The notes beneath the pieces were generated by a model. The model searched no databases. It had not been told where the DNA came from and worked only from the letters and a program-made list of their open reading frames with translations. Positions 195-27,975 of a stretch of 43,866 nucleotides of DNA are shown piece after piece. Location: assembly GCA_964366535.1 (NCBI GenBank), contig CAYIUC010000005.1, positions 1-43,866 on the forward strand. The letters run 5' to 3'. Both the position numbers and the translations under genes were made by a program. This DNA is from an uncultured Candidatus Saccharibacteria bacterium (GTDB lineage: Bacteria > Patescibacteriota > Minisyncoccia > Phycocordibacterales > UBA10002). Positions within the stretch are counted from its first letter, which is position 1, and each line of letters begins with the position of its first letter.

Positions 195-1796
195 ATGACA
201 AAAGAAAAAGACACTTTCTGTATTCCCGAGGAAGTCGCCAAAGTCGCAGAAACCATTGAAAAGAAAGGTTTTGAGGCGTATTTGGTAGGTGGGTGTGTGC
301 GCGACTTGCTACTAGAAAGGAAACCTTCCGATTGGGACATTACCACAAACGCTACTCCCGACGAGATACAAAAGCTTTTTGCGGAATCGTTTTATGAAAA
401 TGAGTATGGCACAGTAGGTGTAGTAACTGCATCCGAGGACCCGACGCTCAAGGTAGTCGAGGTTACCCCATACCGTCTTGAAGGGGCGTATTCCGACAAA
501 AGGCGGCCGGATTCGGTGTCTTTCAGTAAAAATCTAGAAGACGACCTTAAACGCCGCGACTTCACTATTAATGCTATCGCACTAAAGATAGAGCCCGTCA
601 ATGCTATAAACGACACTCTCACGGACATTTCTAAAGGACAAGAAATAATTCATAAAGGACAAAATAAAATGTCCGATAATGTCCGTGAGAATTCTAAAAG
701 ACATAACATAAATCATAAAGGACATCTTGTTGACCCATATAAAGGACAGGGTGACTTAAAGAAAACCCTTATAAAATCAGTCGGAAACCCACAAGAGCGA
801 TTTGCGGAGGACGGGTTGCGTCTTTTACGGGCGGTACGCATAGCCGCAGAGCTCGGTTTTACTATTGAAAATGAAACAGCAGACGCAATATTCAAACAAA
901 ATACGATTTTGAAAGAAATAGCTCCAGAGCGAATCCGAGACGAGTTTACAAAGATTCTTATGTCAGACCGTCCAATGGAGGGCATTATGTTGTGTAGCAA
1001 ATTGGGGCTTTTGCAACATTTTCTACCTGAAATTGAGCAATCGTTTCAGGTGAAACAAAACAAAGCGCACTCATTCGGTGTAGGAGAACATCTGCTAAAA
1101 ACCGTTTCGCATGCGGCAAAGAAAGGGTTTTCTTTGGAAATACGCCTCGCTTCCCTCTTGCACGACATATCTAAACCAGAAACGCGACGATGGTCTGAAG
1201 AAAAGAAGGACTGGACCTTCTACGGTCATGATGTTACAGGCGCCAGAACCACAGAAAGAATATTAACTCGCCTAAAGTTTCCCGTGAAACTTACCGAAAA
1301 GGTAGTAAAGTTGGTTCGTTGGCATATGTTCTTCTCGGATACAGAGGTCATAACGCATTCTGCGGTACGCCGACTACTTATGAATGTAGGCAAGGAAAAC
1401 ATATGGGACCTTATGAATGTGCGCGCCTGCGACCGTATAGGCACCGGTAGGCCAAAGGAAAGCCCGTACCGCCTCCGCAAGTACCACTCTCTTATAGAAG
1501 AAGTGATGCATGACCCAATAACGGTTGGCATGTTGAAAATCAAGGGTGGGGAAGTCGTGGAGATTGCAAAAATAAAGCCAAGCCCAAAAATTGGTTTCAT
1601 CCTTCATGCACTCCTTGAGGAGGTTTTGGATGATTCAAATAAGAACACCAAGGAGTATCTCACACAAAGAACCGTTGAATTATCTGCTCTTTCTGACAAA
1701 GAACTAGAGAAATTGGGTAAAAAGGGTAAAGAGAAACGAGTAGAAACGGAGGAGGCAAAGATAAGCGAGATTCGTGGTAAATACTGGGTAAAGTAA
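195..1796 (+). CDS. cca: CCA-adding tRNA nucleotidyltransferase (class II, with HD domain) carrying an in-frame repeat insertion
   Basis: 533-aa ORF. It shows GGCVRDLLL...DWDITT and RRDFTINA nucleotidyltransferase motifs and a C-terminal HD motif (LLHDISKP). About 40 extra residues of KGQ-type heptad repeats lie between RRDFTINA and DPYKGQGDL. Confidence 0.9.
   Translation: MTKEKDTFCIPEEVAKVAETIEKKGFEAYLVGGCVRDLLLERKPSDWDITTNATPDEIQKLFAESFYENEYGTVGVVTASEDPTLKVVEVTPYRLEGAYSDKRRPDSVSFSKNLEDDLKRRDFTINAIALKIEPVNAINDTLTDISKGQEIIHKGQNKMSDNVRENSKRHNINHKGHLVDPYKGQGDLKKTLIKSVGNPQERFAEDGLRLLRAVRIAAELGFTIENETADAIFKQNTILKEIAPERIRDEFTKILMSDRPMEGIMLCSKLGLLQHFLPEIEQSFQVKQNKAHSFGVGEHLLKTVSHAAKKGFSLEIRLASLLHDISKPETRRWSEEKKDWTFYGHDVTGARTTERILTRLKFPVKLTEKVVKLVRWHMFFSDTEVITHSAVRRLLMNVGKENIWDLMNVRACDRIGTGRPKESPYRLRKYHSLIEEVMHDPITVGMLKIKGGEVVEIAKIKPSPKIGFILHALLEEVLDDSNKNTKEYLTQRTVELSALSDKELEKLGKKGKEKRVETEEAKISEIRGKYWVK
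620..750 (+). repeat. tandem ~21-24 bp repeats carrying the TAAAGGACA motif, in frame inside cca
   Basis: Exact TAAAGGACA starts at 632, 653, 716 and 740. A variant TAAAAGACA starts at 694, and inverted TGTCC half-sites are at 670 and 680. The encoded peptides are SKGQEII/HKGQNKM/SDNVREN/SKRHNIN/HKGHLVDP/YKGQGDL. Confidence 0.85.
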
Positions 1797-2077: not shown

Positions 2078-2262
2078 TCTAAAGGACATTATAAAGGACA
2101 TGTCCGTTACGCGTAAAGGACATTGTCCTTTAGAAACTGTGGATAAACTCCATAAATACGCAGAAAGACACACTTCTAATGGACATTCAAGGTTATAAAG
2201 GACAATTCTAAAGGACAGTGTCCTTTAGAATTGTCCTTTATAAATTGGTTGCTGTCCTTTAG
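2078..2262. promoter_or_regulatory. dense array of TAAAGGACA / TGTCCTTTA sites with nested palindromes and a consensus DnaA box
   Basis: Nine exact 9-mers occur: forward at 2080, 2092, 2114, 2196 and 2209; reverse at 2124, 2219, 2232 and 2253. There is a 19-nt palindrome at 2114-2132 and a 51-nt perfect palindrome at 2193-2243. TGTGGATAA at 2138-2146 is the reverse complement of TTATCCACA. Confidence 0.8.
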
Positions 2263-2297: not shown

Positions 2298-2326
2298 TTG
2301 CAAAGAAAAAGGTTTTGTGCTATACT
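2298..2326 (+). promoter_or_regulatory. promoter of the rpsO-NYN-pnp cluster
   Basis: TTGCAA at 2298-2303, a 17-nt spacer, and TGcTATACT with TATACT at 2321-2326. The ATG lies 10 nt downstream. Confidence 0.6.
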
Positions 2327-2336: not shown

Positions 2337-2603
2337 ATGATAACCAAGAGAAAAAAGCAGAATGTAATTAAAGAGGTCGGCATGCACGATAAGGACACAG
2401 GGTCTCCGGAAGTGCAGGTCGGCATTTTGTCGCGCCGCATAGACGAACTTACACAGCACCTGAAAACGCACAAGAAGGATATACACTCGCGCCGAGGATT
2501 GCTCGGTATGGTGGCGGCACGCCAGTCGCATTTGCGTTATCTTCAAAAGAAGTACCCGAAACGCTATACTTCAGTAGTGCGAAAACTAGAACTAAAAAAG
2601 TAA
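2337..2603 (+). CDS. rpsO: 30S ribosomal protein S15
   Basis: 88 aa with the motifs DTGSPEVQVGILS...HLKTHKKDIHSRRGLL...YL typical of uS15. Confidence 0.95.
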   Translation: MITKRKKQNVIKEVGMHDKDTGSPEVQVGILSRRIDELTQHLKTHKKDIHSRRGLLGMVAARQSHLRYLQKKYPKRYTSVVRKLELKK

Positions 2604-3127
2604 TGTCGATTATAAAACACAAAGAACAGCGCGTTGCGGTGTTTATTGACACGCAAAATCTATATCACAGCGCAAAAAACCTGTACCGAGCGAATGTGAA
2701 CTTCGGCCAGGTGGTGAAGGATGCCGTTGCTGGAAGGCAGCTAGTACGCGCTCTCGCGTATGTTATTACTACTGAAAACGGCGAAGAAAAAGGGTTTTTT
2801 GACGCGCTTGCCAAGGTTGGCATTGAAACCAAGACGAAACCATTGCAAATTTTCGGTAGCGGCGCAAAAAAGGCGGACTGGGATGTGGGGTTGGCGATAG
2901 ATGCCGTAAAGATTGCGCCGAAGGTTAATGCCGTAGTATTGCTCTCGGGAGACGGCGATTTTATACCTCTTGTGGAATACCTGCAGACCAACCAAGGATG
3001 CCAAGTAGAGGTGGTGGCGTTTGGTAAATCCACTTCGCAAAAACTTATTGAGGCGGCAGACGACTTTACCGATTTGGATGAAAGCCCCCGCAAATATTTG
3101 CTCGGCAATAGCCGCGGCCGGCGATAG
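2603..3127 (+). CDS. NYN/LabA-like domain protein (predicted ribonuclease fold)
   Basis: 174 aa with motifs VFIDTQNL, DVGLAIDA and LLSGDGDFIPL. The start overlaps the rpsO stop as TAATG. Confidence 0.75.
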   Translation: MSIIKHKEQRVAVFIDTQNLYHSAKNLYRANVNFGQVVKDAVAGRQLVRALAYVITTENGEEKGFFDALAKVGIETKTKPLQIFGSGAKKADWDVGLAIDAVKIAPKVNAVVLLSGDGDFIPLVEYLQTNQGCQVEVVAFGKSTSQKLIEAADDFTDLDESPRKYLLGNSRGRR

Positions 3128-3153: not shown

Positions 3154-5001
3154 ATGCAAAAAAGAGAATACTCGGTTGAGGTTGGCGGTAAGAAAATTAT
3201 TGCAGAGTTTAACGACTTGGCGGAGCAGGCAAACGGGAGCGTACTTATGCGCTCTGGAGATACGGCGGTGCTAGTAACCGCCGTGATGTCAAAAGATGAG
3301 GAAGATACGGATTACTTACCGCTTACCGTTGATTACGAGGAGCGGTTTTATGCAGTTGGAAAAATGCTAGGAAGCAGTTTTGTGCGCCGAGAGGGGAAAC
3401 CATCTGATGAGGCCGTTCTCGCGGGGCGCATCGTAGACCGAACCATTCGCCCGCTATTCGACCAACGAATACGCCACGACATACAGGTGGTGGCGCTTGT
3501 CCTAGCGCTTGGAAAGGATGCGTTTCCTGAAACACTCGCGACTATAGGCGCCTCGCTCGCGCTCGGCGCCTCCGACATTCCGTGGGGCGGGCCAGTTTCC
3601 GCAGTGCATATTGCCGAAGGTGCATTATCGCTGGTAGCGTGCGGCACTACAGGGCTTATCAATATGGTAGAAGCCGGCGGAATGGAAATTGAAGAAGCGG
3701 TGCTCGTAGCGTCGCTAGAGCATGCACAGAAAGAAATTGAAGTACTGCACAAGTGGCAAGAAAAAATAATCAAAGAAATAGGAAAGAGTAAACGCGTGAT
3801 CGCTTTCCAGAATCCTCCAGAAGAACTTGCGGAACTTTTCCACAAACACATTGAACCGAAGTTGGGAAATGCCGTGTTTTCAGGAACTCCTGGGCATAAA
3901 ACAATAGACGCTCTTAAGACCGAGTGGCTCACGCTTGCCGCGGAGAAATTCACGGGCGAAACGCGCGCACTCGCGTTTGCAGACGCGCATTTTGAACACG
4001 CGGTAAACAATCTTCTGCATCACGAGGCAATAGAAAACAGCCGGCGTGCCGATGGTAGGGGGGTAGATGAGGTGCGCCCACTCTTCGCGCAGGCGGGCGG
4101 CATATCGCCCGTACTACATGGCTCGGGCGTGTTTTACCGCGGCGGGACGCACATTCTGTCAACGCTCACGCTCGGCGGGCCGAAGGATGCGCAAATTTTA
4201 GACGCGCTACAAACGCACGGACAAAAAAAGCATTTTATGCACCATTACAACTTCCCGCCGTTTGGAACGGGCGAGACGGGAAAACTCGGGGGCAAGAATC
4301 GCCGCATGATAGGCCACGGCGCGCTTGCGGAAAAAGCGCTTATACCGGTACTGCCATCTCCAGAAATATTTCCGTACACAATTCGCGTCGTGTCTGAAGC
4401 CCTTTCTTCCAACGGTTCAACTTCTATGGGCAGCGTATGCGCCTCCTCACTCGCGCTTATGGACGGCGGCGTGCCGATCACGGCTCCAGTAGCCGGTATT
4501 GCATCGGGGCTTATGTTGAGCGCAGCGAAATCCGCCTCTGGCGGAATGGAATACCGCTACAAAATACTCACCGACATTCAAGGACCGGAAGACCACCACG
4601 GCGACATGGACCTAAAGGTAGCCGGGACGCGTAAGGGAGTAACGGCGGTACAGATGGATGTAAAAGTAGACGGCGTACCTAACGGAATACTAGCCGAAGC
4701 GCTTCAAAAGGCGCGCACGGCGCGACACTACATTTTAGACACAATGGAAAAGGTGCTCGGAGCGCCGCGCGCGGATATTGCGCCGTCGGCGCCAAAAATA
4801 CTAGTTGTGCGCGTACGCAAAGAGCAAGTAGGACTTGTGATTGGGAGCGGAGGAAAAACAATAAATGAAATAAAAGCTCGGACGGAAGTGGACGCGATAG
4901 ACATAGAAGACGATGGACGCGTCTTTATTACAGGCAAAAACGGCTCCGCCGAAAAAGCCGCCGCTGTCATCAAACACCTAATAGAGAGCGCCAGGAGGTG
5001 A
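3154..5001 (+). CDS. pnp: polyribonucleotide nucleotidyltransferase (PNPase), short form lacking the C-terminal S1 domain
   Basis: 615 aa with two RNase PH-like cores and a KH GxxG motif (GSGGKTINEI). The protein ends about 40 aa after KH. TACACT at 3141-3146 lies 7 nt upstream of the ATG. Confidence 0.9.
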   Translation: MQKREYSVEVGGKKIIAEFNDLAEQANGSVLMRSGDTAVLVTAVMSKDEEDTDYLPLTVDYEERFYAVGKMLGSSFVRREGKPSDEAVLAGRIVDRTIRPLFDQRIRHDIQVVALVLALGKDAFPETLATIGASLALGASDIPWGGPVSAVHIAEGALSLVACGTTGLINMVEAGGMEIEEAVLVASLEHAQKEIEVLHKWQEKIIKEIGKSKRVIAFQNPPEELAELFHKHIEPKLGNAVFSGTPGHKTIDALKTEWLTLAAEKFTGETRALAFADAHFEHAVNNLLHHEAIENSRRADGRGVDEVRPLFAQAGGISPVLHGSGVFYRGGTHILSTLTLGGPKDAQILDALQTHGQKKHFMHHYNFPPFGTGETGKLGGKNRRMIGHGALAEKALIPVLPSPEIFPYTIRVVSEALSSNGSTSMGSVCASSLALMDGGVPITAPVAGIASGLMLSAAKSASGGMEYRYKILTDIQGPEDHHGDMDLKVAGTRKGVTAVQMDVKVDGVPNGILAEALQKARTARHYILDTMEKVLGAPRADIAPSAPKILVVRVRKEQVGLVIGSGGKTINEIKARTEVDAIDIEDDGRVFITGKNGSAEKAAAVIKHLIESARR

Positions 5002-6005: not shown

Positions 6006-6365
6006 ATGGACAAAAAGACGATAAAACATTTTGAAGAAAAATTAAATGCGGAATTCGCGGAATTGCGCTCGGAGCTTGAAGGTATCGGGCGCAAAAACCC
6101 CGACAACCCGAAAGATTGGGAGGCGACGCCGGAAAAAATGGACACGCTCGCCTCGGACGAAACAGAAATAGCCGATAGTTTGGAGGCATTTGAGGGAAAT
6201 ACGGCAATTCTGAAACAATTGGAAATCCGCTACAACGAAGTCAAAGCGGCGCTCGCGCGCGTAAAGGCGGGCTCGTACGGGCTGTGCGAAAAGGGTGGGG
6301 AAGTGATAGAGAGGGACCGCCTTGATGCAAACCCTGCAGCAACGACTTGCAAAAAACACCTATAG
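6006..6365 (+). CDS. DksA/TraR-family-like protein with a degenerate C-terminal zinc finger
   Basis: 119 aa with a coiled-coil N-terminus and a C-terminal YGLCEKGGEVI...RLDANPAATTCKKH layout. The usual CxxC pairs read CxxG and CxxH. TATAAT at 5991-5996 lies 9 nt upstream. Confidence 0.55.
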   Translation: MDKKTIKHFEEKLNAEFAELRSELEGIGRKNPDNPKDWEATPEKMDTLASDETEIADSLEAFEGNTAILKQLEIRYNEVKAALARVKAGSYGLCEKGGEVIERDRLDANPAATTCKKHL

Positions 6366-6381
6366 CGATACGCTATTTTTT

Positions 6382-7959
6382 ATGAGTTTCGCCAAAGTTT
6401 GGAGCGCGGAAACACACCTGCTCGCGCCGCATCTAATATCTGTTGAAACAGACATTGCGCCAGGACTACATTCGTTTTCCGTCGTTGGGCTACCCGACAA
6501 GGCGGTAGAAGAATCGCGCGATCGCGTGTCGGCAGCAATTAAAAACAGCGGGTTCAAGTCGCCGAAGCAGAAAAACCAGAAAGTAACCGTCTCGCTCGCG
6601 CCGGCAGACCTAAAGAAAGAGGGGCCGGCGTTTGATTTGCCAATGGCGCTCGCGTACCTCAAAGCCGTTGGCGCTATCCGATTTGAAACGGAAAAGCGTT
6701 TGTTCCTAGGCGAACTTTCGCTTGATGGCGCACTACGCTCGGTTGCAGGCGTGTTACCGCTTGTAGAAGAAGCACGGAGGCGCGGATTTACAGAAGTATT
6801 CGTGCCACAAGAGAATGCGCGCGAAGCGGCGCTCGTGCGAGGAATTACGGTGTTTGCCGCGCAGACGCTTTCTGCGGTGATCGCGCATTTGATTCCAAAA
6901 GATCTGCCGGGAGACGGCGAGGACGCGCCGTTTGTAAAAAAGCGCGCTATAAAACCAACACCAGAAACGCCGATTCCTGACGAGCCGCCAGAAGCACAGA
7001 TTGATTTTTCAGACATTAAAGGGCAGGAAACCGCGAAGCGCGGGCTAGAAATTGCTGCGGCGGGAGGACACAACATATTGCTCTGGGGTCCGCCTGGGAC
7101 GGGCAAGACAATGCTCGCAAAAGCGTTTGCGGGAATCCTTCCGCCGCTTTCGTTTCAAGAAATGCTAGAGGTAACGGGCATACATTCTGTCGCGGGAAAA
7201 ATTCGCGACACACTAATAGCACACCCTCCCGTGCGAAGCCCGCACCATACTGCCTCGTATGTTTCCATAACAGGTGGAGGAGCGATACCGAAGCCGGGCG
7301 AGGCGACGCTAGCGCATAGGGGAGTGCTTTTCCTAGACGAATTCCCAGAGTTTGACAGGCGAGTGATAGATACCCTCCGCGAGCCATTGGAAGAACGAAT
7401 GATTTCCGTATCGCGTGCGCGCGGCTCGGCACACTTTCCTGCGCATTTTATATTGATTGCGGCGATGAATCCGTGCCCATGCGGAAACAAAGGCGTGAAA
7501 GGGAAATCGTGCGTGTGCGCGCCGAATGCGGCGGAACGCTACCGCAGGAAAATATCTGGACCGGTGATTGACCGCATTGACCTTGCAATTGAAGTGTCTG
7601 CCGTAGAGCACGGCAAGCTCTCGGAGGAGGCGCGAGACGGCTCGCTTTCGCGCGAGGTACGCGCGCGCGTCCTTGCGGCGCGCGCGCGGCAGGCAGAACG
7701 GTTTGCGAAGGCGAAACTTTCGGTAAAGACAAATGCCGATACTCCGGCAAAGCATATCGCCAAGCTTATTCCACTGGATGAAAAAACTAAGGGAATGTTA
7801 AACAGCAACGCGCGGCGCTTAGACCTATCGGCGCGCTCGTACCACCGCGTGATGAAGCTCGCGCGCACGATTGCCGACCTTGCCGAGCGCGAGCGCGTTT
7901 CCGAAGACGACATTTTAGAAGCCCTCCGCTACCGCCCGAAGCAGGTGCTGAATCAGTAA
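6382..7959 (+). CDS. comM: YifB/ComM family Mg-chelatase-like AAA+ ATPase
   Basis: N-terminal Lon-like domain (VVGLPDKAVEESRDRV...LAPADLKKEG), Walker A GPPGTGKT and Walker B LFLDEFPEF. I prefer the internal start MSFAKVW at 6382, which removes the overlap with the upstream gene. The track ORF starts at 6322. Confidence 0.85.
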   Translation: MSFAKVWSAETHLLAPHLISVETDIAPGLHSFSVVGLPDKAVEESRDRVSAAIKNSGFKSPKQKNQKVTVSLAPADLKKEGPAFDLPMALAYLKAVGAIRFETEKRLFLGELSLDGALRSVAGVLPLVEEARRRGFTEVFVPQENAREAALVRGITVFAAQTLSAVIAHLIPKDLPGDGEDAPFVKKRAIKPTPETPIPDEPPEAQIDFSDIKGQETAKRGLEIAAAGGHNILLWGPPGTGKTMLAKAFAGILPPLSFQEMLEVTGIHSVAGKIRDTLIAHPPVRSPHHTASYVSITGGGAIPKPGEATLAHRGVLFLDEFPEFDRRVIDTLREPLEERMISVSRARGSAHFPAHFILIAAMNPCPCGNKGVKGKSCVCAPNAAERYRRKISGPVIDRIDLAIEVSAVEHGKLSEEARDGSLSREVRARVLAARARQAERFAKAKLSVKTNADTPAKHIAKLIPLDEKTKGMLNSNARRLDLSARSYHRVMKLARTIADLAERERVSEDDILEALRYRPKQVLNQ

Positions 7960-8042
7960 ATTATGCATCTTATATGGTTTATATTGACTTATCCACAACG
8001 AAGAGTAAGTGAAATAAAAAACCTAAAACGGATTTTTTACCC

Positions 8043-16440: not shown

Positions 16441-17430
16441 ATGATGCGGACACGCCCAATTACAATATCCGCCGTTATATTTCTCGCCGCACTCGTCGGC
16501 TTCTTTGCCTATTCTGAATACATAAATCAAGGTGAAGAGGTTGCGGCGCGAGAAGAAGCGCCCGCGAGCGTTCTCGGTTCTGCGGCGCTTATCGCCGACA
16601 GCGACCGCGACGGATTAAAGGATTGGGAGGAAGAACTTTGGCGCACTGCTCCCGACAAACCAGATACAGATGCCGACGGCACGAATGATGCGGAGGAAAT
16701 AAAAAACGGAAGGAATCCGCTTATTGCAGGCCCTGAAGATAAGCTAGATGCCGCAACCGCCGCGACTAAGGTGAACCCAGACGCAAAAACGACTACAACC
16801 GACACCGAGCGCCTTGCGAGAGAAATCTTTGGCACCTACCTTTCCACCAGGCAAGAAGGTCTGCCCCTTTCGCAAAATGAAATTGCAAACATAATAGACA
16901 CGGTATCTGCAAGCGTACCAGAAGAAAGCCCTAAAATATTTACCGCTACGGATGTGAAAACATTTGCCGATGAAAATAGCGCGGCGTTACGCGCGTACGG
17001 AAATGCACTCGGCTCAGTGCTCAAAAAGCCATGGCCCGCGCGCGAAAACGAAATTGCCGTCTTTGAACGCGCAATACAAGACGAAAACCCCGAGACGGCG
17101 CGGCTAGACCTTGCCAACCTCACGCCCATTTCGCTCGCATACGGCAATATGGGGAAAGACATCGCACGCATACAAGCCCCCGCGGGCGCGCTAGCTTCGC
17201 ACCTGCGCGCCGCAAACGCCACAATGGAGATAGGCGAGAGCGTGCGCGGTATGAGCTCTGCTCTAGATGATCCCATCAAGGCAGTATCAAGTGTCGCTCG
17301 CTACTTCGGCGCAGGCCCTCGACTAGGAGACGCGCTTGCGGAATTGCGAGCATACCTAGAAAACCGAGGTATTTCGTACACAGAAGACGAAGATGGTTAC
17401 GCGCTGTGGAATGCGACCGCTAACCAGTAA
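16441..17430 (+). CDS. membrane-anchored protein with thrombospondin type-3-like calcium-binding repeats
   Basis: N-terminal TM helix ITISAVIFLAALVGFFAY. Repeats are DSDRDGLKDWEE and DTDADGTNDAEE. TATACT at 16430-16435 lies 5 nt upstream of the ATG. Confidence 0.6.
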   Translation: MMRTRPITISAVIFLAALVGFFAYSEYINQGEEVAAREEAPASVLGSAALIADSDRDGLKDWEEELWRTAPDKPDTDADGTNDAEEIKNGRNPLIAGPEDKLDAATAATKVNPDAKTTTTDTERLAREIFGTYLSTRQEGLPLSQNEIANIIDTVSASVPEESPKIFTATDVKTFADENSAALRAYGNALGSVLKKPWPARENEIAVFERAIQDENPETARLDLANLTPISLAYGNMGKDIARIQAPAGALASHLRAANATMEIGESVRGMSSALDDPIKAVSSVARYFGAGPRLGDALAELRAYLENRGISYTEDEDGYALWNATANQ

Positions 17431-17446
17431 ATTAACCGCCCAGAGA

Positions 17447-17526
17447 CAACCCCTCCTGCCTCCCCCAAGGGGAGGTTCTGACCCTCCCTTCCCTTTGGGG
17501 AGGGAGTAGGAGGGAGGGGTGGTGTG
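17447..17526. repeat. nested G/C-rich palindromic element
   Basis: Hairpins CCTCCCCcaaGGGGAGG and CCCTCCCttccctttGGGGAGGG lie within CCCCTCCT...AGGAGGGAGGGG arms. The element ends in GGGGTGGTG. Confidence 0.8.
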
Positions 17527-17614
17527 TTTGATTGGGTTTTCCACTTCCGCACACAAAACAAACCCTCTATAATAAGGGCACGGAAGACGCCTCGCTAAAC
17601 GCGACAGGCGAATT

Positions 17615-19705
17615 ATGCGTTGCAAACACATTACAACTCTGCTCATCGTCTCTCTTTTCGTAACTGGCTCGCTATTTACGCCGACGAAGCGCGCCCATGC
17701 GCTTGTGAGCTGTATTCCAGCCATCGCCCCTATTCCAGATATACCACTAGCCGTACCTGTACAAAACTTCGGAGAAATGACGCGGCAAAATATTGCCAAT
17801 ACTTTCAGTGCCTCCAATTTCACCAAAGAGTGCATTCTGGATGCGATGGTTACATTCCTCAAAGAAGCGCTGATACAAAACATCACCGGCTCCATTGTGG
17901 ATTGGATAAACAACGACTTTGAGGGCGGTCCGGCGTTCGTAACCGACCCCGCAGGGTTTTTCGTAAATATTGCCGACGAGACCGCCGGGCGGTTTATAGA
18001 AAATCAATTAGGTCCCATCGGACAACTGCTTTGCAGTCCGTTTGACTTGCGACTGCGTTTGAATCTTTGGCTTGCAACAAGCGCCTCGCGCAAGCAGTAC
18101 ATCGGCTGTCGCCTTACCGATGTGCAGATGAATGTGCACGATGCGTTTACACAAGGTTCGTTTATCGCTTCCGGCGGTTGGAAAACATTTAACGCAATAA
18201 CTTCCGACCCTCGCAACAACCAATACGGCGCGTTCCTCTACGCCTCGGACGCTCTTAACAATGAATTCGTCAAAAGGGCGAATGAAACACTTCGCGATCT
18301 CTCGTACGGTAGGGGATTTCTGTCGTTTAAAAAATGTTCTGAGTGGGTAGATGCATCAAGTGAGGGAACGGGCGAGGGGAGCGGAAAAAGATGCGCAAAA
18401 TACAAAGTGGAAACCCCTGGCTCTCTTATCAACAACCAACTAAATAATGCGTTCGGCTCGGAATTGCGCAAATTTGAGTTGGCGGACGAAATAAACGAGG
18501 TGTTTCAAGCGCTTGTAAACTATGGGCTTCGGCAAGTGTTTACAGCGACAGGCGGCGGACTCCGTGGCGCGAGCAAGGCGGCGGCGGGACAAGAAAGCGC
18601 GGCGTCGCGCCTGCGAAGGTCAGAGGGTACGATAATGAACGAGGTATATGCAAACACGCAAACCGACACAACCGGTGGATTTATAACTACAAAATATGAT
18701 TTGGCTTCTAAGGACGACAATACGCTCACAAAAGTTGTGGCGGAAACAAAATCAGGAAGCGCGGGCGGCAGTAATGGAGAGCGGTTGTCGCCAGACCGAA
18801 ATCTTGCGCTTAATAGGCCGGCATCACAATCGGGATATTATGCCTTACCGCGCTATGATGCCGACAAAGCAGTCAATGGAGGCAAGGACGCGGTCAAGGG
18901 CGATTGTTATGGCTTCAACTGCGCCGCAGTAACCTCCAAATCATCCCCGATATACTGGGAAGTTGCGCTAGGGAAAACATATTCCATAAAAGAAGTGTGG
19001 ATACACAAGGCAAACGACCTTTCTTATGATGCAGCGTTGGGGACATTTAAACTTTCTATCTTAAAGCCGGACCGCGGTATCGCGTACACGAAAGAAGTTG
19101 CGGCCAATTCTGCCACTGCGATTCCACTCGTGATGCCGAACATCAATACCGCTGGCGCGATTGTGCGCATTGAGCGCGCGAATGGAGACGAACTTGCGCT
19201 TGCAGAAGTAGAAGTGTACGGCACGGAATGGGAGACGGCGACTGCAAACACGCCGCCGCCAACTGGCGTTACCGCTCCTCCACCTAGTGCAACTCCAGTG
19301 GTTTCGGTACAACGAAATGTGGAACTGAAAATTGACGGTCCGGTATTTACCATCAATGAACCGATCGTAAATGCGCATATAGGCATCTCAATGGACCAAC
19401 AAGTGGGTACGACATACAAGCCGTTTGCGCCACAGCAAGCGTTTTCAAAAATCCTCGTGCGGGTAAAAAATCAGGAAACGGGTGTGGAGAAGTTTACTGA
19501 GGAGTTTACCAATACGGAAATAAAAACATACCGCACCACCCAAACCTTTAGTGCCACGGCGGGAGAAAAAATAACCGTCGGATACGAGTTTACTCCACAA
19601 AGCGGCGCAAAGGGAAACTACGCGCTTAACACCGAAATAATCGGCTCGGATGGAAATCAGGTTCCCGGTGCCGTAAGCACAATGAGAATTCAAGCACCAA
19701 ATTAA
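17615..19705 (+). CDS. secreted protein with a C-terminal F5/8 type C (discoidin)-like domain; first gene of the T4SS-like operon
   Basis: Signal peptide MRCKHITTLLIVSLFVTGSLFTPTKRAHA. Discoidin-like block: NLALNRPASQSGYY...AVNG...YWEVALGKTYSIKEVWIH...LALAEVEVYG. Confidence 0.6.
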   Translation: MRCKHITTLLIVSLFVTGSLFTPTKRAHALVSCIPAIAPIPDIPLAVPVQNFGEMTRQNIANTFSASNFTKECILDAMVTFLKEALIQNITGSIVDWINNDFEGGPAFVTDPAGFFVNIADETAGRFIENQLGPIGQLLCSPFDLRLRLNLWLATSASRKQYIGCRLTDVQMNVHDAFTQGSFIASGGWKTFNAITSDPRNNQYGAFLYASDALNNEFVKRANETLRDLSYGRGFLSFKKCSEWVDASSEGTGEGSGKRCAKYKVETPGSLINNQLNNAFGSELRKFELADEINEVFQALVNYGLRQVFTATGGGLRGASKAAAGQESAASRLRRSEGTIMNEVYANTQTDTTGGFITTKYDLASKDDNTLTKVVAETKSGSAGGSNGERLSPDRNLALNRPASQSGYYALPRYDADKAVNGGKDAVKGDCYGFNCAAVTSKSSPIYWEVALGKTYSIKEVWIHKANDLSYDAALGTFKLSILKPDRGIAYTKEVAANSATAIPLVMPNINTAGAIVRIERANGDELALAEVEVYGTEWETATANTPPPTGVTAPPPSATPVVSVQRNVELKIDGPVFTINEPIVNAHIGISMDQQVGTTYKPFAPQQAFSKILVRVKNQETGVEKFTEEFTNTEIKTYRTTQTFSATAGEKITVGYEFTPQSGAKGNYALNTEIIGSDGNQVPGAVSTMRIQAPN

Positions 19706-19708
19706 CCA

Positions 19709-21652
19709 ATGAAAAAACTTATTATCATCGTTTTGTTGCTCGGCATCGCACTCGCTCCGGTGGGCGGGGGGGTGGCTTTTGCAGTGGAAACCGGCGGAAA
19801 TGCCCCGCAAACAAACGGCGAGGTGAATGGCGGGTGCGGGATGTTTTCTATAGGCGACTGCATCACCTTCTTTATTGCCCAAATGGGCAATATGGTAATG
19901 ACGCTTGTCTCTAGCGTGCTCAGTATAGCGGGCGCGGCGCTGAACTTCTCGGTGGACCTTACCGTCAATATGAGCGCGTTTCTTGCAAAGGTAAAAATTG
20001 TGGATGTGGGGTGGAAGATAATGCGCGATATTGCAAACCTTTTCTTCATCTTCATACTCCTCTGGGTCGGAATACGCACTATTTTGCAAATGGGAAGCGA
20101 CAACGAGGTGCGTAAGACGCTTCTATGGGTAGTAGTAATGGCACTTCTTATAAACTTCTCGCTCTTTATCACCAAAGCGGTGGTGGATATGGGAAACATT
20201 GCAACACTCCACTTCTACGACGCTATGCGCCCCGACCTATATGAGAACGGGCAACCAGTAAAGGATGCGCAAGGAAAACAAGTAAAGGCGGGTCTTTCCG
20301 ACATATATATGGAAGGGCTAAAAATGCAGACCTTTATGGGGAGCGGTAGCTCTGTGAACAACTTAGTCGCAACTGCAGGCGGCTTCACCAACCAATTTAT
20401 CAAAATTGGGTTGGTAACAATTCTCGGCTCCGTCTTCTTCCTTGTGGCGGCGTTTGTTTTCTTCGCCGCCGCATTTCTCTTTATCGGTCGCGCGGTTGTG
20501 CTTATGTTCCTTATGTTACTCTCGCCACTCGCATTTGCGGCGCAGGTGATACCAAGCATGCAGGGACAAGCTAAGCGTTTTTGGGATACACTTCTCAAAC
20601 AAACCTTCTTCGCTCCGCTCTATATGGCGCTCACTTATGTCGTGGCCAAGGCAATACAAAGTAACGGATTTTCGGACCTTACCAACATTACCGGCAACCA
20701 AGCATCGTTTGCCGCGCTCCTTACTGGCGAACCGTCTGACAATATCGGCATTGTTGTCAACTACATCTTCCTCATCGGCGCGATGGTGTACACGCTCGTT
20801 ATCGCAAGCCAGGGTGGCGCGTATGGAAGCAAGATGGTCATCGGCTGGGGCAAATCGCTCCAAGGGTGGGGGCAGGGGCTCGTTACAGGTGCCGCGGGAG
20901 GGGTTGCCGCGCGCGCTTTGGGCGGTCTTTCCAAGGCGGCGACGGGCGGCTTGTCGGGAACCACGAGTGCCTTTGGGCGCGCGGCGCTCCGCACTGCCGA
21001 CCGTTTGCAAAATATGAAAATCGGCGGCAAGTCATACAAGGAGATGCAAGAGAAGGGGACTTTCTTTGGAGTGGGGGAGGAGGAGATAGAACGAAACATG
21101 AAGCAGTTTAAGAGCCGACCGCAAGAACAAGCGGCGTACCTCTCGCGACTTTCCGAAGGCCAACGGCGTAAGGCATATGAGAAGTTGTCGGCACGAGATA
21201 GGGTTGCAATTGAGCGTACTGGCGTATTGCAACAAGCGCAGATAAACGATATGTATGGACGCCTCAATCCAGAGGAGCGTGACAAGGTTGACGAGGCGCG
21301 ACGCAAGGTACGACAAGAAGAGGGTAATGAACAACGAATGGCTACCGTGGAAACAATCACTGCGGTTCCAGTTGGTACGCCGCTTACTGCCGACCAAATA
21401 ACAGCGGTTACTCAACTCCGCCCAAATCAAGCGCGCGATCTTTCACACGAAGCGCGTACAAACCCTGAAATTATTCGCCGTTTGCGTCCACAACACCTAC
21501 GCGATTTGATGGAAAATGGAAACCTACTTCCGGATGAAATACAGGCAATAATGAATGAGATAGGAGTAGTGGGTGCACCGATAACATATCCAGCGCAGAA
21601 TGCCCAACGCACTTATGTTCAAAATCCGGCAAATGCGGTCTTATGGACGTAA
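19709..21652 (+). CDS. polytopic membrane protein, VirB6/TrbL-like
   Basis: 647 aa with a signal peptide, at least six hydrophobic helices and a charged cytoplasmic tail. The start is 3 nt after the upstream stop. Confidence 0.5.
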   Translation: MKKLIIIVLLLGIALAPVGGGVAFAVETGGNAPQTNGEVNGGCGMFSIGDCITFFIAQMGNMVMTLVSSVLSIAGAALNFSVDLTVNMSAFLAKVKIVDVGWKIMRDIANLFFIFILLWVGIRTILQMGSDNEVRKTLLWVVVMALLINFSLFITKAVVDMGNIATLHFYDAMRPDLYENGQPVKDAQGKQVKAGLSDIYMEGLKMQTFMGSGSSVNNLVATAGGFTNQFIKIGLVTILGSVFFLVAAFVFFAAAFLFIGRAVVLMFLMLLSPLAFAAQVIPSMQGQAKRFWDTLLKQTFFAPLYMALTYVVAKAIQSNGFSDLTNITGNQASFAALLTGEPSDNIGIVVNYIFLIGAMVYTLVIASQGGAYGSKMVIGWGKSLQGWGQGLVTGAAGGVAARALGGLSKAATGGLSGTTSAFGRAALRTADRLQNMKIGGKSYKEMQEKGTFFGVGEEEIERNMKQFKSRPQEQAAYLSRLSEGQRRKAYEKLSARDRVAIERTGVLQQAQINDMYGRLNPEERDKVDEARRKVRQEEGNEQRMATVETITAVPVGTPLTADQITAVTQLRPNQARDLSHEARTNPEIIRRLRPQHLRDLMENGNLLPDEIQAIMNEIGVVGAPITYPAQNAQRTYVQNPANAVLWT

Positions 21653-21658
21653 CCTCAT

Positions 21659-22702
21659 ATGAAATTTACACATACACAAGCCCTAGAATCTCTTAACAAA
21701 CTCCCGCAAGAGACGCGCGAGCGCGTCACTTCGCAAGAAATAACCGACGCGACTATTCGTATCGCGGAAAGAAATGTAGTTCCAAAAGAAAAGATCCTTG
21801 CTTTTAGTTCTGCAGTAGGAACTGTACTACTCGGTTTGATTCAAAAAGAAAAACTTGCCGAGCAGTTGGTTGCAGAGTTGCAACTGCCGCCAGAAAAAGC
21901 CGCCGCGATTGCGGGGGAGGTGGAGAAAGAGATTTTTAATAGTTCTCCCTCTGCCCCTTTTTCAAAGGGGAAGTCCCCGAGTCCGTCTAAGGCGGACGAG
22001 GGGGTAGGGGTTGGTCACGCACAAGGCATACCCCTCCGCCCCGCCCCGCCAGTCGGCGAGGCGGGGCACCTCCCCTCTCAAAGAGGGGAGGGGGAACAAA
22101 AACAAATTTCTCCCCCTCGCCCCGTCCCCATCCGCAAGCCACTACCCCCTCTTGCTCCCTCCCTTTTGGGGAGGGCGGGGGGAGGGGTTGTACCCTCTCT
22201 CCAATCCCTCCTCGCCGACATTCGCCGCGGCACGGCATACGACGAGAATCGTATAGCCGATGCCTTCCGAAAAACGCCGATTGAAGTCAAGCAGTCGCTA
22301 GAGAGTGTCGGGTTTCTATCACGAATGGAAGGCGTTGCGAAAAAGTTTGGTTTAAATGTGGAAGAAACTGGGGAGCTCGTGAGCGAGTCGGGGCTCGTAA
22401 TGCTCGGGCTAACACAACCAATGAACTTCGTAGACAATCTCACGAAACGATTGCGACTGCCGCGCGACCGCGCGATGGCGGTAGGGCAAGCGGTAAATAT
22501 GGAGGTACTGCGCCCAGTGCGGGAAATTTTGCGGAAGATGAGTGTGCCGTCGGAGGAGCTGCGATTTGCGCCGCCCGCCACCCCTGCTCCTTCACAAAAT
22601 CCTCCCCCAACCCCCTCCTTTAGTAAAGGAGGGGGCGGAGGGGGCGGATTTTCTCCAGTGCAAAAATACACTACCGACCCCTACCGCGAACCAATAAACT
22701 AA
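21659..22702 (+). CDS. hypothetical protein with two homologous ~60-aa modules separated by a repeat-element-derived Pro/Gly linker
   Basis: IAERNVVPKEK...GTVLLGLIQ...LQLPPEKAAAIAGEV aligns with VAKKFGLNVEE...GLVMLGLTQ...LRLPRDRAMAVGQAV. The linker at 21945-22191 consists of palindromic elements. Confidence 0.6.
   Translation: MKFTHTQALESLNKLPQETRERVTSQEITDATIRIAERNVVPKEKILAFSSAVGTVLLGLIQKEKLAEQLVAELQLPPEKAAAIAGEVEKEIFNSSPSAPFSKGKSPSPSKADEGVGVGHAQGIPLRPAPPVGEAGHLPSQRGEGEQKQISPPRPVPIRKPLPPLAPSLLGRAGGGVVPSLQSLLADIRRGTAYDENRIADAFRKTPIEVKQSLESVGFLSRMEGVAKKFGLNVEETGELVSESGLVMLGLTQPMNFVDNLTKRLRLPRDRAMAVGQAVNMEVLRPVREILRKMSVPSEELRFAPPATPAPSQNPPPTPSFSKGGGGGGGFSPVQKYTTDPYREPIN
21945..22191. repeat. 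three tandem G/C-rich palindromic elements, in frame in a CDS
   Basis: Copies at 21945-22016, 22031-22097 (opposite arm order) and 22108-22191. Each contains CCCC...GGGG hairpins. Confidence 0.8.
22596..22652. repeat. 57-nt nested palindrome (AAAATCC-type element) in frame in a CDS
   Basis: AAAATCCTCCCCCaaCCCCCTCCTTTAgTAAAGGAGGGGGcgGAGGGGGcGGATTTT. It is translated as NPPPTPSFSKGGGGGGGFS. Confidence 0.85.
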
Positions 22703-22703
22703 T

Positions 22704-23105
22704 ATGAAGTATCAGACACCGCAATTTATAGACATAGAAGACAAGCTATTTGGGCCGTTTACGGTCAAACAATTCATCTACCTAGTCGGTGGAGCTGGAC
22801 TTTCGTTTATCGCATATCGTTTTTTGCCGACCGTTATAAATATAATCGTCATCCTGCCGATTGCCGCACTCGCACTCGCACTCGCGTTTTGGAAAATCAA
22901 CGGCAAACCGTTTGTGTTTATCTTAGAATCCGCTATTCGTTATTACTTCTCCGACAAGCTCTACCTCTGGCGCAAGGTGCCTAAAACCATGTTGGCAAAG
23001 AGTGTCGCGCCAAACGCCCCCCCAACAATACCGAAATTAAATGAAGGCAAGTTGCGCGACCTCACTTGGACGCTAGACATTTCGCATACGACAACGCGAA
23101 AGTAA
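22704..23105 (+). CDS. PrgI-family-like (VirB3-like) small two-TM protein
   Basis: FIDIEDKLFGPFTVKQFIYLVGGAGLSF followed by a second helix. The start is 1 nt after the upstream stop. Confidence 0.6.
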   Translation: MKYQTPQFIDIEDKLFGPFTVKQFIYLVGGAGLSFIAYRFLPTVINIIVILPIAALALALAFWKINGKPFVFILESAIRYYFSDKLYLWRKVPKTMLAKSVAPNAPPTIPKLNEGKLRDLTWTLDISHTTTRK

Positions 23106-23123
23106 GCGGGGTATACTATCACC

Positions 23124-23750
23124 ATGCCACCACATACGAAACCAACACAGGAGTTCGTCCCAATCTCTGAAATACGAGACGGGGTGCTCATTTTGCGAGA
23201 CGGCGGGTTGCGCGCTTTGCTTATGGTCTCATCTGTCAACTTCGCGCTCAAATCCGAAGACAACCAAGAAGCGATACTTCTGCAGTTTCAAAACTTCCTT
23301 AATACGCTGGATTTTTCGGTACAAATTGTAGTACATTCGCGCCGTTTTGATGTGCGTCCTTACCTTGCCCTATTAGAAGAACGAGTGAAGGCGCAAGAAA
23401 CGGAACTCTTGAAAATCCAAACGCGCGAGTATATCGGCTTCGTGCGCTCGTTTACCGAAAGCACTGCAATTATGTCCAAAACCTTCTTTATCACCGTGCC
23501 GTATTCGCCTACTCCAGTTAAACTTAAGGGCGGGCTTCCTGTCGGGTTCCGCAAAAACCAATCAAAAAGCGCTACGGCCAGCGACTTCAACGAAACCAGA
23601 ACGCAATTGGAGCAGCGTATCTCTATTGTGGAGCAGGGGCTTACGCGGTGCGGGCTGCGCACCGCGCGGCTTGGAACAGACGAAGAGATAGAGTTGTTTT
23701 ATAAATTGTTTAACCCTGGCGAAGAACAGCATGCGGCAGTTACCGCATAA
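23124..23750 (+). CDS. T4SS-associated protein resembling a VirB4/TraC N-terminal (non-ATPase) domain
   Basis: Contains EFVPISEIRDGVLILRDGGLRALLMVSSVNFALKSEDNQ. TATACT at 23112-23117 lies 6 nt upstream of the ATG. Confidence 0.45.
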   Translation: MPPHTKPTQEFVPISEIRDGVLILRDGGLRALLMVSSVNFALKSEDNQEAILLQFQNFLNTLDFSVQIVVHSRRFDVRPYLALLEERVKAQETELLKIQTREYIGFVRSFTESTAIMSKTFFITVPYSPTPVKLKGGLPVGFRKNQSKSATASDFNETRTQLEQRISIVEQGLTRCGLRTARLGTDEEIELFYKLFNPGEEQHAAVTA

Positions 23751-23757
23751 AAATACT

Positions 23758-25572
23758 ATGGGAATCTTTGATTTTCTAAAACCAAAAAGGAAAGAGACGG
23801 ACGAGGTAACCCCGATACTACCCGAACAAATCTACCAGTCGGGAGTTTTGGAATTGCGCGATGTGCTCGCGCCCGCCGCGCTCAAAATCTCTCCAAAAAT
23901 CCTAAATCTCGGCGAGAAAATAGCGCGTTCATACTTTGTCATCTCATATCCGCGCTTTCTCACCGCAGGGTGGTTCTCACCAATTATCAATTTGGACAAA
24001 GTATTTGATGTTTCCATCTTCGTACACCCAGTGGAGACAGGAAAGGTGCTGAAGCAATTCCAAAAGAAAGTCGCCGAGGTGCAAAGCCAAATACACACTA
24101 GGGAGGAAAAGGGGTTCGTGCGCGACCCGCAGTTGGAAACCGCCTACCAAGACCTAGAGAAACTGCGCGATGAACTGCAACAGGCGCAGGAAAAGATTTT
24201 TGATGTTGGGCTCTACCTCACGCTCTATGCGGACTCGGAAGAAGAGTTGGAAAAGGTGGAGAGCGAGGTGAAGTCCATTATGGAAGCGAAGCTCGTGTAT
24301 ATGAAGCCCGCGCTCTTCCAGCAGGCAGAAGGGTTCCGCTCGGTAGCGCCTTTAGCCACCGACGAACTCCTAGTGCACTCTAAACTAAACTCCGGACCGC
24401 TTTCTTCCATCTTTCCATTTATTTCGTTTGACCTCTCGTCCGACAAAGGCATTCTATACGGCATAAACAGACACAACTCGTCGCTAGTGCTGTTTGACCG
24501 ATTTTCTCTGGAAAACTACAACTCTGTCGTCTTCGCAAAGTCCGGCGCGGGCAAGTCGTATATGATGAAGCTGGAAATTCTCCGCACGCTTATGTTTGGT
24601 ACGGAAGTTATTGTGATTGACCCCGAAAAAGAGTACGCGTTTCTCGCAGAATCGGTGGGAGGAAAATTCTTTTCCATCTCGCTTACATCCGAACACCACA
24701 TAAACCCATTTGACCTACCGCTCCCGCGCGAAGACGAGTCGCCAGCGGATATATTGCGAAGCCATATAATTTCCTTGGTCGGGCTTTTCCGCATTATGCT
24801 CGGAGGTCTATCACCCGAAGAAGATGCACTCGTAGACCGCGCGATTACAGAAACATACGCGCTCAAAGACATTACGCCCGACTCGGACTTTGGAAAAACC
24901 GAGCCGCCGCTACTTTCCGATTTTGAACTGGTGCTCGCGGGTATGGAAGGCGCAGAAAGTATCCGCGTACGGCTCACCAAATATACGAAGGGCACCTGGT
25001 CAAACTTCATAAACCGCCCATCCAATGTTTCCATAGACGGAAACCTTGTCGTGTTTTCTTTGCGAGACATGGAAGACGAGCTAAAATCGGTCGCTACTTA
25101 CATCGTAACGCACCACATCTGGAACGCGGTACGCAGAAACCTGAAGCGCCGCCTACTGATTGTAGACGAGGCGTGGTGGATGATGAGGAGCGAAGATACT
25201 GCATCTTTCCTTTTATCTGTAGCAAAACGCGGGCGCAAATATTTCTTGGGGGTGGCAACTATTACGCAAGATGTGGACGACTTCCTCTCTTCGCCATACG
25301 GATTGCCGATTGTTACAAACTCTTCTATCCAGATGCTACTTAAGCAGTCGCCGGCAGTGATAGATCGCATCCAAAAAGTATTTAACCTGACAGATGAGGA
25401 AAAGTACCTGCTCTTGGAGTCGGATGTGGGGGAGGGGCTTTTCTTCGTAGGGCTGAAGCATGTTGCGATAAAAATCGTTGCTTCCTATACCGAAGATCAG
25501 ATTATTACCAGCGACCCATCGCAACTTTTGGCGATTAAGAAAGCGAAAGACGAATTGAAAGCAGCTTCATAG
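23758..25572 (+). CDS. VirB4/TrbE/TraC-like type IV secretion ATPase
   Basis: Walker A is FAKSGAGKSYMMK and Walker B is LLIVDEAWWM, with the motif GVATITQD. I prefer the start MGIFDF at 23758; the track ORF starts at 23731. Confidence 0.75.
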   Translation: MGIFDFLKPKRKETDEVTPILPEQIYQSGVLELRDVLAPAALKISPKILNLGEKIARSYFVISYPRFLTAGWFSPIINLDKVFDVSIFVHPVETGKVLKQFQKKVAEVQSQIHTREEKGFVRDPQLETAYQDLEKLRDELQQAQEKIFDVGLYLTLYADSEEELEKVESEVKSIMEAKLVYMKPALFQQAEGFRSVAPLATDELLVHSKLNSGPLSSIFPFISFDLSSDKGILYGINRHNSSLVLFDRFSLENYNSVVFAKSGAGKSYMMKLEILRTLMFGTEVIVIDPEKEYAFLAESVGGKFFSISLTSEHHINPFDLPLPREDESPADILRSHIISLVGLFRIMLGGLSPEEDALVDRAITETYALKDITPDSDFGKTEPPLLSDFELVLAGMEGAESIRVRLTKYTKGTWSNFINRPSNVSIDGNLVVFSLRDMEDELKSVATYIVTHHIWNAVRRNLKRRLLIVDEAWWMMRSEDTASFLLSVAKRGRKYFLGVATITQDVDDFLSSPYGLPIVTNSSIQMLLKQSPAVIDRIQKVFNLTDEEKYLLLESDVGEGLFFVGLKHVAIKIVASYTEDQIITSDPSQLLAIKKAKDELKAAS

Positions 25573-25579
25573 ATAAAGT

Positions 25580-25936
25580 ATGGAAGAAAATGCAAAACAA
25601 GAACCAAAAATAGACAAAGCAACTGGCATTGTGATGATTGCCGTCGCGGCGCTTTTTGATATTGCGAATGCCGGTATTAACCTAATACCCGTACTAGGGC
25701 AAATTCTCGCAGTGCTAATTTCTATAGTCGGGTACTGCACATTTACACTATGGTTCTGGAAGCGAGGTATCGGATTTGTAAATCCTAAGCGTACTGCAAC
25801 ATTTTTCGGTTCAGGAATTATTGAAGCGATTCCGGTACTAAATATTCTTCCCGCGCTCACGGTCGGGGTGGCGCTCACTGTCGGCATGGTACAATTAGAA
25901 GACAGAACCGGGATTAAATTACCGGAAAAAGTATGA
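25580..25936 (+). CDS. small polytopic membrane protein
   Basis: 118 aa with three to four hydrophobic helices. Tightly packed within the operon. Confidence 0.55.
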   Translation: MEENAKQEPKIDKATGIVMIAVAALFDIANAGINLIPVLGQILAVLISIVGYCTFTLWFWKRGIGFVNPKRTATFFGSGIIEAIPVLNILPALTVGVALTVGMVQLEDRTGIKLPEKV

Positions 25937-26889: not shown

Positions 26890-26921
26890 TATACGAATAT
26901 ACGAATTATACGAATCTACAA

Positions 26922-27971: not shown

Positions 27972-27975
27972 TTTT

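Follow-up and report, generated by a model that had tools for sequence, protein, structure and literature searches.

A dense array of a nine-nucleotide motif (9-mer), TAAAGGACA, lies between the cca and rpsO genes of a 43,866-nucleotide stretch of DNA (hereafter the window; positions 1 to 43,866 of contig CAYIUC010000005.1, GenBank assembly GCA_964366535.1, deposited as an uncultured Candidatus Saccharibacteria bacterium). The contig was derived from the 0.1 um fraction of a Hainich groundwater metagenome, and its closest named relatives are metagenome-assembled genomes (MAGs) of Parcubacteria/Paceibacteria. The array is the expanded downstream arm of a three-part, class-wide module that is arranged around and inside cca, in which the 9-mer is co-located with DnaA boxes and parS-like sites. 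Based upon sequence comparison, TAAAGGACA is interpreted with moderate confidence as a box that would be occupied by one subunit of a lineage-specific DNA-binding protein, within an origin-proximal chromosome-maintenance hub.

Within the 540-bp cca-rpsO gap (1797-2336), the array extends from 2080 to 2261 and comprises nine exact copies of TAAAGGACA, at 2080, 2092, 2114, 2196 and 2209 on the forward strand and at 2124, 2219, 2232 and 2253 on the reverse strand, together with one-mismatch copies at 2101 (reverse) and 2177 (forward). A consensus DnaA box is embedded in the array (2138-2146, reverse strand), reading TTATCCACA on the reverse strand and TGTGGATAA on the forward strand; the order of the exact copies is three forward, one reverse, the DnaA box, two forward and three reverse. 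The composite in the window reads TAAAGGACA-t-TGTCCTTTA-gaaac-TGTGGATAA, and the extended consensus of the box is approximately TT(A/C)TAAAGGACAT. Unit spacings (9-13, 17-18, 21 and 24 nt) are irregular and involve both orientations, with direct repeats (11-13, 17-18, 21 and 24 nt) as common as inverted pairs. The sequence GGACATGTCC occupies 2096-2105, a 19-nt palindrome occupies 2114-2132, and a 51-nt perfect palindrome (inverted repeat I3) occupies 2193-2243, the last composed of four boxes, two direct and two inverted, with 100% complementary arms at 2193-2217 and 2219-2243. Hairpin extrusion is possible for this palindrome (DNA fold of -24.3 kcal/mol, z = -12); since its arrangement is not kept in relatives, it is most likely a by-product of site layout. 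A preliminary description of the window had listed the nine sites, the palindromes, the DnaA box and the 540-bp gap, and re-scanning returned all of them at the same coordinates, although four exact copies inside cca (632-748) and four parS-like sites had been missed. The accompanying proposal of a dimeric binder stands as far as inverted pairs exist, but is weakened by the frequency of direct repeats and by the lack of conservation of the 51-nt palindrome.

The last 9-mer copy ends 36 nt before the -35 hexamer (TTGCAA, at 2298) of a conserved promoter-like site, TTGCAA-17-TATACT (2298-2326, forward strand), close to the 37 nt or so initially estimated; rpsO starts at 2337. The -10 hexamer TATACT (2321-2339 region) ends 10 nt before the ATG and no Shine-Dalgarno sequence is present, suggesting that the rpsO mRNA may have little or no leader. 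A promoter-like site on the reverse strand, TTTACG-18-TATAAT (2117 to 2088), lies inside the array.

Thirteen exact copies of the 9-mer are present in the 43.8 kb window compared with 0.33 expected, and 13 or more were reached in none of 100 shuffles, in agreement with the earlier assessment that the motif is rare by chance. No copy occurs in the window outside the spacer array and a second array within cca, so the motif does not behave as a scattered generic repeat, one of the two findings that had been named in advance as decisive against a binding array. The cca gene (195-1796, forward strand) encodes the CCA-adding enzyme, with PolyA_pol head, RNA-binding and HD domains. Its internal array (607-748, forward strand) contains exact copies at 632, 653, 716 and 740 and one-mismatch copies at 607 and 695, and the gene also hosts two parS-like sites.

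Sites resembling parS were sought with the 14-nt core GTTTCACGTGAAAC, allowing up to three mismatches in the window and up to two across loci. Only four were found in the 43.8 kb window, all between the two 9-mer arrays: GTTTCAGGTGAAAC (1043-1056) and GTTTCCCGTGAAAC (1277-1290), each with one mismatch and inside cca, and GTTACACATGAAAC (1803-1816, 7 nt past the cca stop) and GTTTCCCGTGTAAC (1986-1999, 81 nt ahead of the array), each with two mismatches. An equivalent of the first is present in loci L004, L005, L007 and L048. The 9-mer itself bears no resemblance to the 16-bp parS palindrome TGTTNCACGTGAAACA, whereas these neighbouring sites do. Among the functions listed in the preliminary description, centromere comes closest, because the array flanks a parS-like cluster, though the 9-mer is not itself parS. 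A survey of 36 cca loci yielded between one and seven parS-like sites each, with perfect sites in seven loci, and in the flank analysis of 35 distant cca loci such sites were present in 31 (mean of 3.1 per locus; chance expectation at up to two mismatches, approximately 0.03 per 8 kb). No parS-like site was detected at 24 loci (approximately 185 kb) of a second 9-mer context beside ftsK, described below. Neither ParA nor ParB was found in the window or the retrieved loci, a search that is uninformative for whole genomes.

Conservation of the module was examined in close relatives (L004, L005/L006, L007 and L048) with Cca proteins 74-82% identical to that of the window. Each carries 16-20 exact 9-mers in three clusters, located just 5' of cca, inside cca and in the cca-rpsO spacer, and none was found outside these clusters in approximately 21 kb. 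The spacer array of L004, L005, L007 and L048 spans 182-195 bp with 8-11 copies and has the DnaA box in the same place; a AACTGTGGATAAAC block is invariant in all four, and the outer copies retain their inward-facing orientation. The order and orientation of the internal copies vary. So does the spacing between the last 9-mer and the rpsO promoter (36-72 nt), and the 51-nt palindrome is not kept. The conserved features support the earlier suggestion that the spacer is a dense array bound by a protein with sequence specificity, and they are the opposite of the second refuting finding named in advance, a spacer missing or unconserved in relatives. The first 20 nt of the contig are G14 C6, likely an assembly or sequencing artefact, so that the contig begins just inside the region that in relatives holds the upstream 9-mer and DnaA boxes with tRNA-Arg and tRNA-Gly; no tRNA genes were found in the window.

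The module is conserved across Paceibacteria at Cca identities down to approximately 43%. In distant lineages the upstream composite consists of TGTCCTTTA, approximately 17 nt with a degenerate box, and TTATCCACA, followed by tRNA-Arg and tRNA-Gly, and the downstream composite reads TAAAGGACA-n2-TAAAGGACA-n2-4-TGTGGATAA-n1-5-TGTCCTTTA. The DnaA box is separated from the 9-mer by 1-5 bp in most distant lineages (L085, L080, L094, L066, L024, L028 and L077). With AACTGTGGATAAAC invariant in close relatives and the DnaA box sandwiched by 9-mers in distant ones, the box is a genuine component of the element, as had been suspected. Most lineages carry the downstream element in the interval where cca and a convergent xth meet at their 3' ends, followed by a xerC/D-like gene, so that the position upstream of rpsO, as first described, is incidental. 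The xth and/or xerC/D-like gene lies between the downstream element and rpsO in L085, L080, L094, L020 and L209-L211 and is absent there in the window clade; the possibility that the window's spacer is a decayed xth/xer region was rejected, no similarity being found.

Four cca loci were selected by Cca similarity alone, ignoring the motif, and all four contained the 9mer-9mer-DnaA box(-9mer) composite 370-500 nt past the cca stop; in-gene boxes, parS-like clusters and upstream DnaA boxes were each present in three of the four. A further 35 distant cca loci were retrieved only via their in-gene copies, and their flanks were scored separately. Of the 27 upstream flanks, 8 had exact 9-mers and 14 had exact DnaA boxes; of the 31 downstream flanks, 12 had exact 9-mers and 7 had exact DnaA boxes (chance for a given exact 9-mer, 0.006 per locus).

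A pattern scan of one genome per species, requiring three exact copies within 30 nt, matched at least 120 stretches. The matches listed were mostly from Patescibacteria of the Paceibacteria type, and the Patescibacteria matches listed fell into two contexts, inside cca and at a winged-helix gene beside ftsK, as opposed to the many unrelated contexts of a dispersed repeat. The matches listed from outside Patescibacteria were either tandem repeats of regular period or, in Chlamydiae, an unrelated family of dispersed hairpins. The latter, in Chlamydiae MAG JABDBC01 (L038, L065, L073, L091, L108, L110 and L113), and a similar repeat in L054 form dispersed hairpins of contiguous tandem 9-nt units (TAAGGGACR/TAAAGGACR) on many contigs. 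Despite the similarity of this unit to the Paceibacteria box, its organization differs and no winged-helix homologue is nearby, and the resemblance is probably coincidental. A literature search on the 9-mer returned primer noise only, and nothing relevant was found in the literature on parS, oriC and ParB in Patescibacteria.

In the second context, the 9-mer is found in and just upstream of a gene of 230-300 aa that is divergent from ftsK, where it marks the promoter and the region encoding the linker of the protein. The encoded winged-helix family has at least 1,642 members, all annotated as hypothetical or as generic DeoR/ArsR proteins; no curated family was found for it, and Pfam and NCBIfam gave weak matches to generic helix-turn-helix domains. 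In the predicted structure, an N-terminal helical bundle (predicted local distance difference test, pLDDT, >90) is joined by a disordered linker to a winged helix at the C terminus. The family has 16 invariant residues, of which 10 are located in the recognition helix and wing. Foldseek returned weak matches (E 0.03-0.1) to generic winged helices (MecI/BlaI, ArsR, AspA and TubR) and to a four-helix bundle. Furthermore, 80 winged-helix loci were collected from metagenomes by protein homology alone, ignoring the motif, and the exact 9-mer was present at the gene in all 80. At the gene there were 224 copies in 85 kb (2.63 per kb) compared with 6 in the other 340 kb of these loci (0.018 per kb), and the copies cluster at -100 to 0 and +400 to +700 of the gene. 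Of all the evidence, this recurrence ties the winged-helix family most strongly to the box, suggesting that the winged-helix protein is the most likely binder of TAAAGGACA. With sites over its own promoter, as in an autoregulated factor, the protein appears to regulate itself through these boxes. The gene is accompanied by ftsK and a gene for a peptidoglycan-binding protein, with no ParA, ParM or TubZ gene in the operon, and DnaA boxes in the ftsK-side arrays did not exceed chance. A different winged-helix gene, of the TrmB family and two genes upstream of cca (L004, 7612-8388; L005, 8358-9128), was considered as a source of the binder and rejected, its family being unlike the ftsK-side proteins and the gene not being syntenic in L007.

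Boxes inside genes show that conservation acts on the DNA and not on the peptide. The cca-internal boxes of the window are all in frame and read xKG(Q/H), while relatives carry 6-8 cca-internal copies, including reverse copies that read NVLY and frame-shifted copies that read LKD. Within genes the word is therefore kept in three reading contexts, xKGH/Q, LKD/IKD and reverse VLY. The more distant cca matches of the three-copy scan, with Cca 41-59% identical, contain a Y-K-G-x...D-P-Y-K-G-Q-x-D-L-K-D site with 24/17-nt spacing, in which the same word is read in two frames. In the window the motif encodes an insert of 35 residues (residues 136-170; 600-704, forward strand), predicted to be a disordered loop: the AlphaFold2 model of Cca has a pLDDT of 84.6 overall, with values of 25-31 and no secondary structure at the insert. 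Its length is variable among relatives and it is absent from more distant Cca proteins. This variability, together with the predicted disorder, suggests a tolerated loop encoded by extra boxes, and it is expansion of the boxes that produced this 35-residue loop in the clade of the window.

The module consists of an upstream arm with the 9-mer and one or two DnaA boxes, followed by tRNA-Arg and tRNA-Gly; a middle part with 9-mers inside cca and then parS-like sites; and a downstream arm in which parS-like sites are followed by 9mer-9mer-DnaA box-9mer. In the proposed model, the box-binding protein, DnaA and a ParB-type protein would probably come together there on adjacent sites to form an origin-proximal nucleoprotein hub. 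The boxes would be recognized as single units by the winged-helix protein, and its helical-bundle domain could bridge the three box clusters. Occupancy of boxes beside the DnaA box may help or hinder DnaA binding at that position, and occupancy may also bound or confine a ParB-parS complex. Any change in the expression of cca, rpsO, ftsK and the winged-helix gene would be secondary, and the array would function as a hub and not as a simple operator. The origin-proximal placement follows from the position of dnaA (at 30617), approximately 28 kb from the array, and such a location is also what is expected of ParABS.

Several observations weigh against this interpretation. The link between the winged-helix protein and the 9-mer is guilt by association, given that the motif also lies inside the coding sequence of that gene, and the flank preferences of the 9-mer at winged-helix promoters agree only in part with those downstream of cca. 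Promoter boxes with an autoregulatory layout would suit an ordinary transcription factor equally well. In the window clade, the array abuts the rpsO promoter and contains the reverse-strand promoter-like site. A strict boundary role does not apply throughout, since parS-like sites of some lineages fall outside the 9-mer brackets. Genes for the winged-helix protein, FtsK, ParA and ParB are all absent from the window. Finally, the pattern scan covers stretches of three copies, and lone sites indicating a wider regulon lie outside its reach.

The main rival is an ordinary operator array, in which the winged-helix protein would be a repressor or activator with a very small regulon (its own gene, ftsK, cca, rpsO-NYN-pnp and perhaps a small RNA in the spacer) and the adjoining DnaA boxes and parS-like sites would be independent features of the region. 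Although this explanation is considered unlikely, it accommodates the promoter boxes (-100 to 0) seen across the 80 motif-blind loci of the winged-helix gene, a classic autoregulation layout, and a separation of 500-600 bp between two clusters would be suitable for repression through looping of the DNA. It also fits an array that ends 36 nt before the rpsO -35 hexamer with a promoter-like site on the reverse strand within it, and the weak structural matches to the MecI/BlaI and ArsR repressors. However, the downstream element of distant lineages lies between convergent 3' ends, where no mRNA promoter is expected, and many boxes are deep in coding sequence. The spacing to the rpsO promoter ranges from 36 to 72 nt, boxes packed within 1-5 bp of a consensus DnaA box are kept across lineages, and 9 to 20 sites are far beyond the needs of an operator. 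A role in RNA or single-stranded DNA, with inverted copies acting as hairpin terminators, processing sites, a structured leader or a small RNA, is highly improbable. The 51-nt palindrome does fold strongly, the spacer upstream of the array has hairpins with compensatory changes, and a CCGCC hairpin is followed by a T-run on the reverse strand; nevertheless, it is the 9-mer that is conserved and not the arrangement or orientation of its copies, direct and inverted repeats are equally frequent, both strands of coding and non-coding DNA carry boxes, and Rfam gave no match at gathering thresholds, with only generic hairpin matches on the palindrome in E-value mode.

The cca module could alternatively be a chromosomal origin, or half of a bipartite one, with the binder as an accessory factor comparable to CtrA, Spo0A, AdpA or HP1021. 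Perfect-consensus DnaA boxes in opposite orientation flank cca in several genomes (two or three over the approximately 2.5 kb of the whole module), the dnaA-dnaN gap of the window holds one-mismatch boxes only, parS sites are normally origin-proximal, and the genes over approximately 30 kb to the right of the array are all co-oriented with positive GC skew. Still, an origin at cca is improbable. The array contains a single exact DnaA box and no other with up to one mismatch, and the spacer lacks an AT-rich unwinding element, having an AT fraction of 0.62 and its richest 40-mer (0.75) outside the array. GC skew tracks gene orientation, with no consistent flip at the module in L004, L005 and L007, and the window contig ends just left of cca. 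The textbook candidate is instead the dnaA-dnaN gap (31964-32171), near rnpA and yidC and approximately 28-30 kb from the array, which is far more AT-rich than the cca-rpsO spacer and is flanked by the inverted, near-consensus boxes TGTGGAAAA (31986) and TTTTCCACA (32107). A selfish or slippage-derived repeat, whether similar to miniature inverted-repeat transposable elements, repetitive extragenic palindromes or Rickettsia palindromic elements, or a remnant of plasmid or phage iterons, is scarcely credible and has largely been refuted. Copy number and arrangement do shift fast between relatives, the in-frame insertions in cca recall Rickettsia palindromic elements, and a Chlamydiae MAG has dispersed hairpins built from a similar 9-mer. 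Yet the motif is limited to two loci across the class, with 6 copies in the 340 kb of winged-helix flanks, its geometry with DnaA boxes is fixed, and no rep, integrase or transposase context is present in the window clade. The earlier idea of a plasmid- or phage-type origin remnant is likewise contradicted by housekeeping synteny conserved across the class and the lack of a rep gene, and that of classical iterons by units that are not contiguous, occur in both orientations and are irregularly spaced, compared with 17-22 bp direct repeats at approximately 22 bp.

The hub interpretation of the module has partial parallels in characterized systems. IHF and Fis act as accessory factors at datA and DARS of E. 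coli, as do CtrA, Spo0A, AdpA and HP1021 at oriC. As at those loci, DnaA boxes are interspersed with the sites of another protein, occupancy of which could modulate DnaA, and the close apposition of 9-mer and DnaA box outside an origin matches datA/DARS in geometry. The cca locus differs in being neither a cluster of DnaA boxes nor an origin by the usual criteria, in involving an unrelated and uncharacterized family, and in including parS-like sites. In the TubR-tubC, AspA, ParR-parC and pSM19035 omega systems, a small DNA-binding protein of the winged-helix or ribbon-helix-helix (RHH) type acts on short repeats and regulates its own synthesis. These arrays share with the present one many short direct and inverted repeats and an autoregulation layout, and TubR and AspA are among the structural matches. 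In contrast to them, the winged-helix gene has ftsK beside it and no adjacent ParA, ParM or TubZ partner, the sites are irregularly spaced and partly coding, the cca system is chromosomal and class-wide, and the structural similarity is weak (E 0.03-0.1), not exceeding that to ArsR and MecI. The ParB-parS clusters of B. subtilis, P. aeruginosa and Corynebacterium resemble the module in comprising a group of near-consensus GTTTCACGTGAAAC sites, partly in coding sequence and tens of kb from dnaA; unlike them, the 9-mer is not parS, the cluster is at cca and not at parAB, and ParB was not found in the DNA examined. Binding of DnaA has also been reported at the parS centromere of Caulobacter crescentus (Mera, Kalogeraki and Shapiro 2014, cited in PMC6667618). 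In both cases, DnaA boxes lie in or beside an origin-proximal region of parS or parS-like sites, away from the origin, implying a link between initiator and centromere. The predicted DnaA box at cca differs in being sandwiched, at 1-5 bp, by boxes of a third, lineage-specific factor that are built around and inside cca.

The remaining spacer and the wider window contain further features. The stretch at 1837-1975, ahead of the array and past cca, holds conserved hairpins that show compensatory changes and could represent a small RNA or a bidirectional terminator; no Rfam match was found for them. One pairs CCGCCCAGTC with GACTAGGCGG and has a T-run next to it on the reverse strand, the other pairs AGAAAA with TTTTCT, and an unpaired conserved stretch, AGGAGATGGGGAAACA, lies between the two. 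A larger structured RNA of approximately 200 nt across this region was rejected, its closing stem being the two parS-like palindromes at 1803 and 1986. The order of open reading frames (ORFs) in the window is cca (195-1796), rpsO (2337-2603), an NYN-domain gene and pnp, with yidC, rnpA, dnaA and dnaN at 29-33 kb. The NYN-domain (RNase-like) gene (2603-3127) between rpsO and pnp (3154-5001) is kept in all Paceibacteria loci examined. The PNPase of the window has 615 aa and no S1-domain match, while some relatives encode proteins of approximately 700 aa with S1. The only other exact DnaA box in the window (7989-7997) lies in the gap after a comM-like gene (6322-7959), and two box-like TGTACAC(A/C) words are present upstream of dnaA (30500-30616), next to rpmH, rnpA and yidC on the opposite strand. 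Co-oriented ORFs at 16441-29193 include a PrgI-like gene (22704-23105), a VirB4/TraC-like ATPase gene (23731-25572) and many large ORFs without a Pfam match, and probably constitute a type IV secretion or pilus-like cluster.

Patescibacteria account for a large share of bacterial diversity and are mostly uncultured, and the control of their replication and segregation is almost unknown. It is possible, and is proposed here tentatively, that the module at cca represents a previously undescribed hub of the candidate phyla radiation (CPR), in which the winged-helix protein, DnaA and ParB, assembled together on interleaved 9-mer boxes, DnaA boxes and parS sites, would couple replication initiation, origin segregation and division in these minimal cells. 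The module provides a testable cis-element map for the CPR cell cycle, made up of 9-mer boxes, DnaA boxes and parS sites, and a candidate trans-factor with no characterized relatives that could be expressed without cultivating the organism. It may also be usable as an origin-proximal landmark in fragmented MAGs. If the interpretation is correct, selection on the boxes would have been strong enough to write them into coding sequence in three frames and to give rise to a new disordered loop in Cca, an essential enzyme. The boxes present an unusually clean case of DNA-level selection overriding protein constraints, with one 9-mer read as KGH/Q, LKD/IKD and VLY.

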